A stretch of 64,000 nt of DNA, from NCBI RefSeq assembly GCF_050920415.1, contig NZ_CP169309.1. One strand, given 5' to 3'. The translations under genes were made by a program, and so were the position numbers. The notes beneath the pieces were generated by a model that saw only the letters and a program-made list of their open reading frames with translations, was not told where the DNA came from and searched no databases. This document shows positions 15,150-47,450 of the stretch, in pieces (within the stretch, counting starts at the first letter, position 1; each line of letters opens with the position of its first letter). Source of the DNA: Escherichia coli (lineage in GTDB: Bacteria; Pseudomonadota; Gammaproteobacteria; Enterobacterales; Enterobacteriaceae).

Positions 15150-15160
15150 TATAATATAGC
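15150..15160. repeat. Left copy of the 11-bp direct repeat tataatatagc (putative attL core)
   Basis: Exact 11-bp match to 47440..47450; host-like sequence to the left, AT-rich foreign sequence to the right. Confidence 0.6.
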
Positions 15161-15409
15161 TTTGGACCCCAATAAAAACCAAATGAAAACAATTAATTAT
15201 GAAAGAAATATCATTGTAATGTCGCAAGAATGTCGCAGAATTTTGAATTTTACATCAAACAGAAATCTTACATAAGTCGTCGAAAAGGAAAACTACCAAT
15301 ATCTTTTCGGTGTTTCCTTTCCCCAAATGGAATTTTTCCTGTTATGCTAATATTCGTTTTAAGGTGTTGATAACTAACATTACACAAAGCAATTAGAACG
15401 GATACTAAC

Positions 15410-16984
15410 ATGGCTAAAAACGCAAAAAACGAGAAACCAAAAAAGTTAGCTTATAGAATAAAAAGTATTAATATTGAAAAATTAAAAGGTATAAATAACT
15501 GCCCTATTTCCTTCCCAGCAGACAGGTCTGTAACTGCTATAATGGGAATTAATGGTTCAGGTAAATCAACAATATTGCACGCTCTATCATGTGTTTTCAA
15601 ACCCAAAGAAAAATCATCCCAAGAAAATAATAGATTTTCTGACTTCTTTACCCCTCACAATGAAAATAACTGGCAAGATAGTAAATTCTCAGTAAAATTT
15701 CGAGCGGGAGAGATAAAAAACAATGGTAATAAAGTCTTTTTTGAAGAAATAGATAATGAAGAAAAGAAAGATATTGTTTATGGCAAGGATAAAAGGTGGA
15801 AACCAGTTTACGCAAGAAGACTTGAAAGAGAATCTATATATATAGGATTACAAAATCTTGCAACGTTAGCTGACAATACAGGAGCATCAAGATACTCAGA
15901 ATATGAAAGAGTAGATATTTATGATAAAGATATAAAGAATCAAATGATATTAGCTCTGAATAAAATCTTAGATGCAGATTACAACGATTTGTTTGAATGC
16001 CGCACCATTAAGGGAAACAAAAAATTCATAGGCATGGTTAAAAACGGCATTGAGTATACAGAACATACTATGGGTGCTGGAGAAAAGAGAGTCTTTGAGA
16101 TAGTTAAAAATGTTTATAATGGAAAGTTAATGCCCAATGGTTTTCTAATCATTGATGAAATAGATGTTTTGCTACATGAAAGAGCTTTTCATGAATTAAT
16201 TAATTTTCTTATCGAAGAAAGCAAGTCTATGTGTTTTGAGGTTGTTTTCACAACACATAGAGAATCCATAATAAAGTTTAAAAATCAAATCAATATAGTA
16301 AGTATATGGAACATAGGGAATGGAATAGAGGCTTATCCCGGCGTTTCTGCGGATGCTCTTCGACAGATATCCAATGTAGAACCTGATATGGTCAATGTGT
16401 TTGTAGAAGACAACTTAGCAAAAACAGCACTAAATATTTTAGTTGAAAGTGAAGGTATGAATGAACAAGTTGATATCTCGCTTTTTGGTTCGGCTGAGAA
16501 TTCAGCTGTAATTTTGTCAGGACTTAAATTAACTGGCAAACGAATTGATACAAGCCTGGCAATTTTAGACGGTGATTACTATATTACCCTCCCTGAAAAG
16601 ACCAAAATGGTTGATAGAGTGTTATCTGGAACAGATAAAAAAGTAGAAAAAAAAGAAGTCTTATCAAGAATATTCCAATTCAATTTAGATGTGACTGACG
16701 TCAAAGGCTCTCCAGAAAAAAACCATCGTGATTGGTTTGAATCTATAGACGAAAACAATATTTCGGAAAATGATAAGACAATGTTTCTTAACCTGAAAAA
16801 ACATTCTACAAGTATTGGTGCTTTAACTGATTATCATGAATATTATCCAGAGTTAGCTCGAAGGTCAAAATTAGATAATATTGAGTACAAAGTTTTGAAT
16901 TATATTAGTAAGTATAGTAATAAATGGGATTTTTACATAAATGATATTAGAAATGAAATAAAAAAAGCAATTGCAGCGATCTAA
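15410..16984 (+). CDS. ABC-type (AAA_21/AAA_15-like) ATPase fused to a C-terminal Toprim/DUF4435-like domain; OLD-family or fused-PARIS-like candidate defence protein
   Basis: Walker A GINGSGKST, signature-like GAGEKR, Walker B LIIDEIDVLLHE, H-loop TTH; C-terminal half has VFVEDN and ILDGDY resembling Toprim E and DxD; about 30 percent GC; own terminator. Confidence 0.6.
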   Translation: MAKNAKNEKPKKLAYRIKSINIEKLKGINNCPISFPADRSVTAIMGINGSGKSTILHALSCVFKPKEKSSQENNRFSDFFTPHNENNWQDSKFSVKFRAGEIKNNGNKVFFEEIDNEEKKDIVYGKDKRWKPVYARRLERESIYIGLQNLATLADNTGASRYSEYERVDIYDKDIKNQMILALNKILDADYNDLFECRTIKGNKKFIGMVKNGIEYTEHTMGAGEKRVFEIVKNVYNGKLMPNGFLIIDEIDVLLHERAFHELINFLIEESKSMCFEVVFTTHRESIIKFKNQINIVSIWNIGNGIEAYPGVSADALRQISNVEPDMVNVFVEDNLAKTALNILVESEGMNEQVDISLFGSAENSAVILSGLKLTGKRIDTSLAILDGDYYITLPEKTKMVDRVLSGTDKKVEKKEVLSRIFQFNLDVTDVKGSPEKNHRDWFESIDENNISENDKTMFLNLKKHSTSIGALTDYHEYYPELARRSKLDNIEYKVLNYISKYSNKWDFYINDIRNEIKKAIAAI

Positions 16985-16991
16985 ACCTCAT

Positions 16992-17020
16992 AAAAGGCGT
17001 AATTTATACGCCTTTTTTTA
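16992..17020. terminator. Rho-independent terminator after the ATPase gene
   Basis: aaaggcgta...tacgccttt stem followed by a run of T. Confidence 0.75.
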
Positions 17021-17181
17021 AGGTTTAAATTATAGTTGCTAATTTCTACTCTTTGTTCCCTCTGTTCGTGCACGTTTCAGGTAGTAAGCTCTCCATCGAA
17101 CCATAGAGATTGAACGCTTTGATTTTTTTTTACATACTGTCTGAAGCTCATTTACTAAGTATTGATAGTCAGGATGACAAC

Positions 17182-17808
17182 ATGACCTCCTACGATGAAC
17201 TTAAAGAATGCATCCGCCTTGAAGTCATTGGCCATGACAAATCCTTTTCATGGCGTAAAGCGTTACTTCGTACCCGACGCAACCAGAAGAAGCACTTCCT
17301 GTTCTGGTGGCGTATCGCTTCATGGCTCTATGGCCAGAATAGTAAGTTCAAAAAGCGCATTGCCCGCAGAATTGAAAACCGCCTCAAGTACCTGCATAGC
17401 GTTGATATTTCGCTGTCATGCAAAATCGGCAAGGGTTTAAACATTGCTCATCTGAACGGTATTGTCATTACTGACAATTGCGTGATTGGTGATTTCGCCG
17501 ACCTGAAGCAAGGCATCACCATAGGGTTACGCACCGACAGTGCCGACGCGATGATAGTCATTGGTGATCATGTTGATATTGGCTGTAATTCGTCCATTCT
17601 GGGCGGCAAGGTTACGATCGGAAACAATGTCACCATTGGGGCGCATTCACTGGTACTTCAGAACATCCCCAGCGACACCGTTTATAAAAACAAGATCACG
17701 CCGGTGTATACATCCAAACTACCGCAGCAGGAATATCAGGAAAATCGGCCTTTTGTCACTGGCAAGGCGATAAAAGAAGCGTCCCGTTCCGCAGAAGCGG
17801 TGCTGTAA
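17182..17808 (+). CDS. Hexapeptide-repeat (left-handed beta-helix) acetyltransferase, serine/sugar O-acetyltransferase-like
   Basis: Tandem hexapeptide repeats (GIVITDNCVIGD, VIGDHVDIGCNSSILGGKVTIGNNVTIGAHSLV); start chosen at ATG 17182 with AGGA RBS, alternative start at 17110; AT-rich. Confidence 0.65.
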   Translation: MTSYDELKECIRLEVIGHDKSFSWRKALLRTRRNQKKHFLFWWRIASWLYGQNSKFKKRIARRIENRLKYLHSVDISLSCKIGKGLNIAHLNGIVITDNCVIGDFADLKQGITIGLRTDSADAMIVIGDHVDIGCNSSILGGKVTIGNNVTIGAHSLVLQNIPSDTVYKNKITPVYTSKLPQQEYQENRPFVTGKAIKEASRSAEAVL

Positions 17809-46265: not shown

Positions 46266-46311
46266 TACTTTTAGGGAATATTATTTTTATACAAATTGAG
46301 AATCTGATTTT

Positions 46312-47352
46312 ATGGCAGTAAGAAAATTATCTTCGGGGCAATGGATTGCCGACTTCTACACCGTCAACCGCAGCAACGGTAAGAACGGAAAACGTATACG
46401 TAAAAAGTTTGCCACGAAGGGAGAAGCCCTGGCATTTGAAAACCACACACTTCAAAAAATAGAGAGTGCGCCATGGTTGGGTGAAGGGAAAGACAAACGA
46501 ACTTTAATCGACCTGATTACGATGTGGTACGAACGCCACGGCGTAGCTTTGCGCAATGGTCAAAAACGTAAAGACGCTATGACTTGGGCGGCTGAGTGCA
46601 TGGGATTTCCACTGGCAACAGAGTTTAATGCCCAGTTGTTCACAGCTTACCGCGCTAAAAGGCTTGATGGGCATTATGCCCGCACTAACAGAGTATCTAA
46701 GGTTTCCCCGAAAACAATGAACCTTGAACATGCTTACTTTCTAGCTATGTTCAATGAACTGAAGCGGATCGGGGAATGGTCAGCTCCCAACCCACTGGAA
46801 AACGTCAGACAGTATCGCACTGATGAAACCGAAATGGCTTTCCTCACTGCTGAAGAAATTGATCGGCTTTTGCTGGAATGCAAACGAAGCAAAGTAAAAT
46901 ACTTAGAGTTAGTCGTAAAAATCTGTCTTGCTACCGGCGCAAGATGGAATGAAGCGGCAACTCTGAAAAGCTCTCAGATCGCTGGCGGTAAAGTCACGTT
47001 CGTCAAAACTAAAGGGAAGCGAAACAGAACAATCCCCCTTGATGATGAACTTCTATCCGAATTACCTGAAACGAAAGGCGCTCTGTTCCCCAAGCCCTGC
47101 TATAACGCTTTCCGCTCTGCTTTGGAACGCGCAGGCATTGAACTCCCCTCCGGCCAGCTTACCCATGTACTGCGCCATACATTTGCCAGCCACTTTATGA
47201 TGAACGGCGGGAACATTCTGGTTCTGCAAAAAATTCTCGGCCACGCTGACATCACTATGACAATGCGTTATGCCCACTTCGCCCCAAGCCACCTTGAAGA
47301 TGCTGTGCGACTTAACCCCCTAAAATGTCGCAAAAATGTCGCGACAGCTTAG
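46312..47352 (+). CDS. int: Tyrosine integrase (P2/186 Int family)
   Basis: 346-aa ORF with the R...HxxR...Y tyrosine-recombinase C-terminal region; adjacent to att repeat. Confidence 0.9.
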   Translation: MAVRKLSSGQWIADFYTVNRSNGKNGKRIRKKFATKGEALAFENHTLQKIESAPWLGEGKDKRTLIDLITMWYERHGVALRNGQKRKDAMTWAAECMGFPLATEFNAQLFTAYRAKRLDGHYARTNRVSKVSPKTMNLEHAYFLAMFNELKRIGEWSAPNPLENVRQYRTDETEMAFLTAEEIDRLLLECKRSKVKYLELVVKICLATGARWNEAATLKSSQIAGGKVTFVKTKGKRNRTIPLDDELLSELPETKGALFPKPCYNAFRSALERAGIELPSGQLTHVLRHTFASHFMMNGGNILVLQKILGHADITMTMRYAHFAPSHLEDAVRLNPLKCRKNVATA

Positions 47353-47386
47353 AAATACTGCCGAATACTCACAGATATTAACTAAC

Positions 47387-47416
47387 GTAACTTATTGATA
47401 ACACTGTAACTTATTG
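47387..47416. repeat. Two direct copies of gtaacttattg (putative integrase arm-type binding sites)
   Basis: Exact 11-bp repeats at 47387..47397 and 47406..47416, between the int stop and the att core. Confidence 0.5.
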
Positions 47417-47439
47417 TTTTTCGTAGATAGTTGATGCTT

Positions 47440-47450
47440 TATAATATAGC
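47440..47450. repeat. Right copy of the 11-bp direct repeat tataatatagc (putative attR core)
   Basis: Exact match to 15150..15160; overlaps the left half of the MntR operator palindrome. Confidence 0.6.

Follow-up and report, generated by a model that had tools for sequence, protein, structure and literature searches.

A 186-type prophage at the mntS promoter of Escherichia coli with an attachment core that overlaps two MntR-type boxes

The window analysed here, a stretch of 64,000 nucleotides of Escherichia coli DNA (NCBI RefSeq assembly GCF_050920415.1, contig NZ_CP169309.1), contains a prophage between mntR and the small-protein gene mntS. The reading favoured here, which as a whole is considered likely, is that a 186-type phage was integrated by its own tyrosine integrase (Int) into the mntS promoter after re-targeting, and that its presence is near neutral for manganese homeostasis. 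The bacterial attachment site (attB) is the palindrome at the meeting point of two adjacent MntR boxes, here called A and B. Int would exchange strands in the sequence TATAATA, and the flanking arms would double as MntR half-sites. The nearest integrase relatives target tRNA-Ile(CAU), and this geometry would copy the anticodon stem-loop of that tRNA; the phage would have been re-targeted from the tRNA to the operator palindrome. Repression of mntS by manganese-bound MntR (Mn-MntR) would be largely preserved through box B, the supply of MntR would be unchanged, and the loss of box A and the -35 region would cause at most quantitative changes.

Results

Insertion between mntR and mntS

The features that define the insertion, with the left and right junctions designated attL and attR, are as follows.

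14577..15044, minus strand: mntR; -10 element TACAAT at 15097-15102 on the minus strand
15150..15160, plus strand: attL core copy TATAATATAGC; has TATAAT and the left half-site ATAGC, then phage DNA (TTT...)
15161..47439: prophage DNA proper; 186-type Peduoviridae, related to ESSI-2-like phages
47440..47450, plus strand: attR core copy TATAATATAGC; TATAAT at 47440-47445
47520..47648, plus strand: mntS, an MntR-repressed small-protein gene of 42 aa; annotated transcript 5' end at 47453

An earlier annotation of the window made from its letters alone, referred to below as the sequence-only reading, had proposed that an exact 11-bp repeat flanks the island. Two exact copies of TATAATATAGC were indeed present, at 15150-15160 and 47440-47450, and none was found elsewhere in the window on either strand. 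Shuffled sequences gave an expectation of 0.01 copies per window, and two or more copies occurred in 0 of 100 shuffles. In the prophage-free K-12 MG1655 assembly and in strain 2013C-4282, mntR and mntS are divergent and separated by a spacer of 185 bp that contains one copy of TATAATATAGC. Host DNA was collinear with both prophage-free genomes as far as position 15160 at the left junction and again from 47440 onward at the right. The empty site has a single 11-mer with unbroken host sequence on both sides of it, so that the second copy in the window is a duplication, and the alignment to uninterrupted spacers placed both junctions where the sequence-only reading had put them.

The insert comprises 32,290 bp that are absent from the empty sites, which bears out the claim that a prophage lies between the two genes and displaces mntR by about 32 kb from mntS. 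The phage attachment site (attP) and attB have the 11 bp of TATAATATAGC in common. The left junction (15145-15161) has the sequence agctatataatatagct, a 17-bp inverted repeat with 8-bp arms and a central A, and is thus the perfect palindrome that had been described; the right junction has the sequence TATAATATAGCCTGTGCTAT. The site is not in a tRNA gene, as had also been stated: attB is the mntR-mntS spacer, an intergenic promoter/operator region. The mntR flank of the window was 100% identical to that of strain 2013C-4282, whose site is empty. Among 5,426 complete RefSeq E. coli assemblies, the best match to the region from int to attR was found in JNE25-001 and JNE12-007 (98.9%).

MntR-type boxes and the mntS and mntR promoters

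Two boxes are distributed over the two junctions.

15137..15150: MntR-type box A, TTAGCAATAGCTAT; 9 of 10 consensus positions; host DNA, stays at attL
47446..47459: MntR-type box B, ATAGCCTGTGCTAT; exact palindrome motif; rebuilt at attR

In attB the order is TTAGC-AATA-GCTAT (box A), the spacer ATAAT, and ATAGC-CTGT-GCTAT (box B), and the attachment core starts at the final base of box A and includes the spacer and the left half of box B. The core had been described as the left half (ATAGC) of a palindrome ATAGC-N4-GCTAT that is intact at attR, and this palindrome was found as ATAGCCTGTGCTAT at 47446-47459. It lies 61-74 bp upstream of the mntS ATG at 47520, in good agreement with the approximate 60 bp given before.

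The motif had been put forward as the MntR box in the sequence-only reading, and exact copies were found upstream of mntH, mntP and dps. The 5.5 kb around mntH contained one exact copy, 17-30 bp upstream of the ATG, and one exact copy with a neighbour carrying a single mismatch was located upstream of mntP. The 64-kb window contained two exact copies, at 47446 (mntS) and 51543 (dps). The latter, ATAGCCGGTGCTAT at 51543-51556, precedes the dps start codon (51606) by 50-63 bp and served as an internal control for the motif. It is presumably the known MntR site of the dps promoter; dps was reportedly identified as an MntR target by Yamamoto et al. 2011. The MntR operators at mntH, mntP and dps have the same ATAGC-N4-GCTAT sequence as mntS, and mntP, like mntS, has a pair of boxes. 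In contrast to mntH, mntP and dps, however, it is only at mntS that the two boxes of a pair lie close together, with their centres 19 bp apart. As a result, a palindrome of opposite polarity is formed between the boxes, and this is used as the phage attachment site. On the basis of these motif matches boxes A and B are regarded as MntR-type operator boxes.

The 5' end of rybA in the RefSeq annotation of K-12 (853,064) corresponds to the G at window position 47453, 8 nt after TATAAT, so that the TATAAT of the core fits as the -10 element of mntS/rybA. Relative to this annotated end, box B extends from -7 to +7 and box A, in the empty site, from -26 to -13. Box B overlaps the core promoter, and the annotated rybA 5' end falls within it. 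An Rfam search revealed no family covering RybA. Repression of mntS by Mn-MntR has been described (PMC4361602; PMC9806134).

For mntR a strong start was determined by Cappable-seq at U00096.2 852,360(+), about 46 nt upstream of the ATG, which is at about 15090 in the window (PMC4782308). Together with the -10 element TACAAT, this start places the mntR promoter wholly on the host side of attL. A predicted minus-strand promoter across the core (ATTACA-18-TATATT) was considered as the mntR promoter and rejected, as the measured start is 60 bp closer to mntR. Box A at attL, the TATAAT of the core, the untouched mntR promoter and the apparent re-targeting of the integrase described below go beyond the sequence-only reading.

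Structure of the attachment site

The integrase gene and the elements around the core are listed here.

15218..15236, plus strand: P'-arm tandem repeat, two copies of AATGTCGC starting at 15218 and 15229 (11-bp spacing); 58 bp from the core
46312..47352, plus strand: tyrosine integrase of 346 aa, transcribed toward attR/mntS; PHROG integrase match, E 2.5e-74
47324..47342, plus strand: P-arm tandem repeat, two copies of AATGTCGC starting at 47324 and 47335 (11-bp spacing); about 100 bp away from the core, candidate arm-type site for Int
47427..47440: ATAGTTGATGCTTT, of phage origin, in register with box A at attR; 8 of 10 consensus positions

The integrase gene adjoins the attachment end, and the catalytic R..H-x-x-R..Y region of its product is readable (...LRHTFASHF...GH...MRYAHF). 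In attB the core is located inside a perfect 15-bp palindrome, GCTATAT-A-ATATAGC, in which ATAAT joins the right half of box A to the left half of box B. From this symmetry we infer that strands are exchanged in the 7-bp overlap TATAATA between the inverted arms GCT(A/T) and TAGC, and GCTA-TATAATA-TAGC is proposed as the Int core site of attB. The block of identity between attP and attB equals the overlap plus the right arm, which is consistent with an overlap of 7 bp. The core arms GCTA and TAGC lie inside the MntR half-sites. On the phage side, only GCTT-core-TTT is conserved directly around the core.

Four of the seven copies of AATGTCGC in the window are located in the two arms. The P' pair, which has the sequence (A/G)TGTCGCA in other lysogens, was situated 58-59 bp from the core in three lysogens with unrelated intervening DNA, and in LH13-b the second P' copy is degenerate. 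The tandem pairs are taken as candidate arm-type Int sites. The phage-borne ATAGTTGATGCTTT was also considered as a mimic of box A that would restore a two-box operator. All six boxes seen have C5 and A13, whereas ATAGTTGATGCTTT breaks both positions, which makes this unlikely. For the same reason it is regarded as an Int C site, which would explain its right half, and it is probably not an MntR site. Conservation of ATAGTTGATGCTTT itself cannot serve as an argument, since conservation extends over the entire P arm.

The overlap of Int and MntR sites could mean that recombination responds to manganese. Mn-MntR bound to boxes A and B would then occlude the Int core sites, and integration and excision would be favoured at low manganese. 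The position of the Int arms within the half-sites agrees with this, as do the end of box A and the beginning of box B inside the 15-bp palindrome and the presence of an intact box A at attL and box B at attR. The argument is purely geometric, however. The site may have been chosen only for its likeness to the ancestral tRNA anticodon stem-loop, and occupancy by MntR in vivo may be too transient. Such control of recombination is considered highly unlikely.

Recurrence and occupancy of the site

Among the 5,421 complete E. coli genomes containing the site, the empty-site sequence was intact in 5,392 and interrupted in 29. The interrupted genomes were the same 29 that have an int gene with 88-99% DNA identity beside mntS (28 full-length, 1 truncated). 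The junctions in LH13-b, PSJ-16 and SC434 were the same to the base as those in the window. A scan of the genome collection for the integrase revealed this arrangement also in Citrobacter sp. R56 (Int 97%) and in Buttiauxella sp. A111 (Int 87%), the latter with the core TACAATATAGC and an mntS homologue downstream. A phage contig from IMG/VR has the P arm, the core and TTT followed by non-host DNA, of which only 27 nt are visible beyond TTT, and this layout matches what attP should look like. The mntR-mntS site is a genuine, recurrent and rarely used attB.

These data also bear on the question of whether the 11-bp repeat is coincidental, or a target-site duplication of the transposition type, and the island not a site-specifically integrated phage at all. 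The core is short, AT-rich and palindromic, and sequences of this type can recur by chance; yet only the 0.01 copies given above are expected in the window. The same junctions occur in independent lysogens of three genera with integrases that are 87-99% identical, and all 29 of the 29 site interruptions are linked to this integrase. Moreover, the element has a tyrosine integrase, an excisionase and arm repeats, and no transposase was found in the insert. This explanation is given practically no credence, and site-specific integration by Int is preferred.

No report of a prophage at mntR-mntS was found in open-access full text, although an earlier mention elsewhere is possible; the sole co-occurrence of mntR-mntS and a prophage in these texts was in an unrelated paper on Klebsiella. 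A survey of attachment sites of P2-like phages does not list the site (PMC3448106). PhiECO1 of E. coli HS, described in the same survey (PMC3448106), was considered as a phage at this site and rejected, as it lies between rcdA and ybjL.

Six of the E. coli elements were inspected, namely those of the window, LH13-b, PSJ-16, JNE25-001, strain 573 and Combat13F7. Three of them are deletion remnants of about 4 kb (PSJ-16), 13 kb (strain 573) and 9 kb (Combat13F7). All three have kept both attachment ends, all or part of int, and the cargo next to attL, and the two larger ones have also kept cI, which fits grounded prophages retained for their cargo. The attL cargo was transcribed away from mntR in all six elements.

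Origin of the integrase

The integrase was 61.7% identical to phage 186 Int over 337 aa, and no phage record had a relative above 76%; the closest integrase in the phage collection had 68.6% DNA and 76% protein identity. Relatives with 74-77% identity occur in Mixta, Escherichia sp. ESNIH1, Erwinia, Serratia and Pantoea, and have the same TGTCGC arm repeats and P-arm layout as the prophage of the window. They abut CTCATAATCGCTTGGTCGCTGGTTCAA...CCACCA, which was identified by comparison with K-12 ileY as a 3' fragment of tRNA-Ile(CAU) that begins at the anticodon loop. ARAGORN found no tRNA next to these relatives, because only 3' fragments are located on the int side. tRNA-Ile(CAU) is the integration site of phage 186 (PMC3448106).

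Both sites have the same geometry, GCGA-CTCATAA-TCGC in ileY and GCTA-TATAATA-TAGC in the mntS attB. The left arm of attP is nearly unchanged between the tRNA group (ATGGTT) and the mntS group (ATGCTT). The simplest reading of these comparisons is a recent change of core specificity from the anticodon stem-loop of the tRNA to a similar operator palindrome.

The phage shares with coliphage 186 (Int, Apl, attP; attB in ileY/ileX) the CI, Apl/Cox-like and CII switch proteins, the position of int downstream of cI with transcription toward the attachment site, tandem direct arm repeats on both sides of the core, and a presumed core of 4-bp inverted arms around 7 bp. In contrast, attB is an intergenic promoter/operator here and a tRNA gene in 186. 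The shared core comprises only 11 bp here, whereas the tRNA-integrating relatives share a block that extends to the 3' end of the tRNA. Two marks of the 186 specificity group are absent: an attB in tRNA-Ile(CAU) was seen only with relatives of 77% identity or less, which abut the tRNA fragment, and the arm repeats are AATGTCGC(A), or (A/G)TGTCGCA, instead of the 186-type tgccGCCActt (PMC3448106). With arm sites around a core, the attachment site is of the lambda/P2 style, and the Int of the window is a sister specificity group of the phage 186 group.

P2 locI, WPhi, PhiD145 and PhiECO1 are likewise Peduoviridae integrated between protein-coding genes by tyrosine integrases with arm sites (PMC3448106). 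They differ in their integrase lineages, loci and cores (about 21-27 bp), and for none of them has an overlap with a defined repressor operator or a -10 element been reported.

A Buttiauxella metagenome-assembled genome contains, at 3995-4330, an integrase relative of 77% identity with a tRNA-type P arm. Identity to tRNA-Ile(CAU) ends there after CTCATAATC and is followed by unrelated DNA; either the junction is rearranged or the site may be a secondary one.

Gene content of the prophage and cargo loci

The remaining genes of the prophage were assigned by profile searches.

15410..16984, plus strand: attL-side cargo, ABC/OLD-type ATPase; PADLOC HEC-04, 3e-33
18353..31870, minus strand: head-tail, sheath, tape measure, baseplate, tail-fibre and lysis module; profile match
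32525..38436, both strands: head/packaging module and late activator
32525-35157, minus strand: small terminase, capsid and scaffold; profile match
35283-38116, plus strand: portal and large terminase; profile match
38113-38436, plus strand: ogr/delta-like regulator; profile match
38736-40757, minus strand: gpA-like replication endonuclease (nickase); profile match
40754-41635, minus strand: DNA adenine methylase; profile match
42927..43430, minus strand: CII-like activator; profile match
43461..43682, minus strand: Cox/Apl-like excisionase and repressor; profile match
43819..44403, plus strand: CI-type repressor; same orientation as the cargo gene and int, toward mntS
44772..46265, plus strand: cargo gene between cI and int, candidate defence protein; PADLOC PDC-S49, E 3e-106

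The search against PHROG revealed the full gene set and order of the P2/186 type with a CI/Apl/CII switch, which upholds the identification of the island as a prophage. A gpA-like replication protein, dam, portal, terminases, capsid, sheath, tape measure, baseplate and fibres are also present. The element is a complete and probably functional temperate phage of the 186 type (Peduoviridae, ESSI-2-like). Escherichia phage ESSI2_ev015 showed 95.7% DNA identity over 17077-40000, which covers the structural and replication genes, in the same order. In the NCBI taxonomy, Escherichia phage ESSI2 is placed in Peduoviridae, Hpunavirus. ESSI2_ev015, ESSI2_ev040 and Cronobacter phage ESSI-2 are among the closest known phages; in contrast, the left-end cargo and the integrase of the window lack close counterparts in the phage collection, where the cargo region 15150-17110 had no match whatever. 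An open reading frame of 232 aa without assigned function (17110-17808, plus strand; phrog_2154, 1.7e-55) is located between the attL cargo and the tail module and starts near the point where identity to ESSI2_ev015 begins.

The attL-proximal locus, 15161-17110 in the window, is a variable cargo hotspot across the elements. It contains a serine acetyltransferase gene in LH13-b and PSJ-16, genes for ATP-binding, STAS-like and PIN proteins in JNE25-001, a gene for an AIPR abortive-infection protein in strain 573, and six hypothetical genes in Combat13F7. A second hotspot is located around int, with the PDC-S49 gene in the window and a P-loop NTPase gene in LH13-b (42483-44267 of its stretch). 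Elements of the SC434 type have an extra gene between int and attR (4053-4634 of the SC434 stretch) and a duplicated int 3' end and P arm. Integrase relatives in Enterobacter and Kosakonia have a KAP-like P-loop gene directly after int.

Predicted consequences for the regulation of mntS

Because the core is duplicated, each junction has kept parts of the promoter region. The -10 element, the annotated start site, box B and mntS are at attR. On the attL side are box A with the native promoter DNA upstream, another copy of TATAAT and the mntR promoter in full. As mntH is controlled by a single box, repression of mntS through box B should largely persist, and as MntR acts in trans, the displacement of mntR by 32 kb should not matter in itself. 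With repression kept and the supply of MntR unchanged, integration would be near neutral for manganese homeostasis, and the effect on mntS repression is thought to be mostly neutral. That integration affects manganese regulation had been suggested in the sequence-only reading and is retained as a possibility.

Several points weigh against near neutrality or against the details of the integration model. The cleavage positions and the 7-bp overlap were derived from symmetry, and the mntS start site was taken solely from the RefSeq annotation of rybA. At attR, box A and the weak -35 region are replaced, and mntS repression, basal strength or cooperativity could change. A simple scan, which would miss Rho-dependent termination, predicted no intrinsic plus-strand terminator between int and mntS, and read-through into mntS could therefore add transcription that is independent of MntR. 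A terminator-like hairpin with a T-run was seen only on the minus strand (47342-47363), where it overlaps the int stop codon and the P-arm repeat; it is predicted to stop transcription that enters the prophage from the mntS side.

Such points lead to a different view, in which transcription is rewired. The mntS promoter would be split into two hybrids, of which the attL half, with the host -35 region, box A and TATAAT, would drive the adjacent cargo (defence) genes under control of manganese and MntR, while mntS at attR would lack box A and receive read-through from the cI-cargo-int transcript of the lysogen, so that MntS would be made in part independently of MntR. TATAAT is present at both junctions, and the attL cargo is co-directional with the host promoter half in the six elements mentioned above. 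Likewise, cI, the cargo gene and int are all read in the direction of mntS, and no plus-strand terminator is predicted between int and mntS. As overproduction of MntS is toxic in high manganese (PMC4361602), even modest read-through could matter. The orientation of the attL cargo may nevertheless be the phage's own operon layout, as the cargo comes after int in attP. A distance of 250 bp separates the core from the cargo start codon, and the gene may have its own promoter; MntR at box B could also block the read-through. Rewiring of this kind appears rather unlikely. It is considered unlikely that at least one of the following is physiologically significant: control of the attL cargo by manganese and MntR, the loss of box A from mntS combined with read-through from cI-int, or competition between MntR and Int that gates recombination. 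The near-neutral integration set out at the beginning is preferred.

Discussion

The mntR-mntS spacer is an attB of Peduoviridae that is used in at least three enterobacterial genera and occupied in about 0.5% of complete E. coli genomes, and no earlier description was found in open-access text. It gives a concrete picture of how a tRNA integrase may be re-targeted: the old and the new site both have the form GCNA, 7 bp, TNGC, and the new one is built from abutting repressor boxes. A core that carries a -10 element between two operator boxes is also a natural test system for the partition of a promoter, for cargo under metal regulation and for gating by a repressor.

If integration is neutral, which is thought most likely, this would be a further case in which a phage uses a site whose function is restored by the duplicated core. 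If hybrid promoters or gating by MntR were true, the prophage would plug its accessory genes and its mobility into the metal-sensing circuit of the host.

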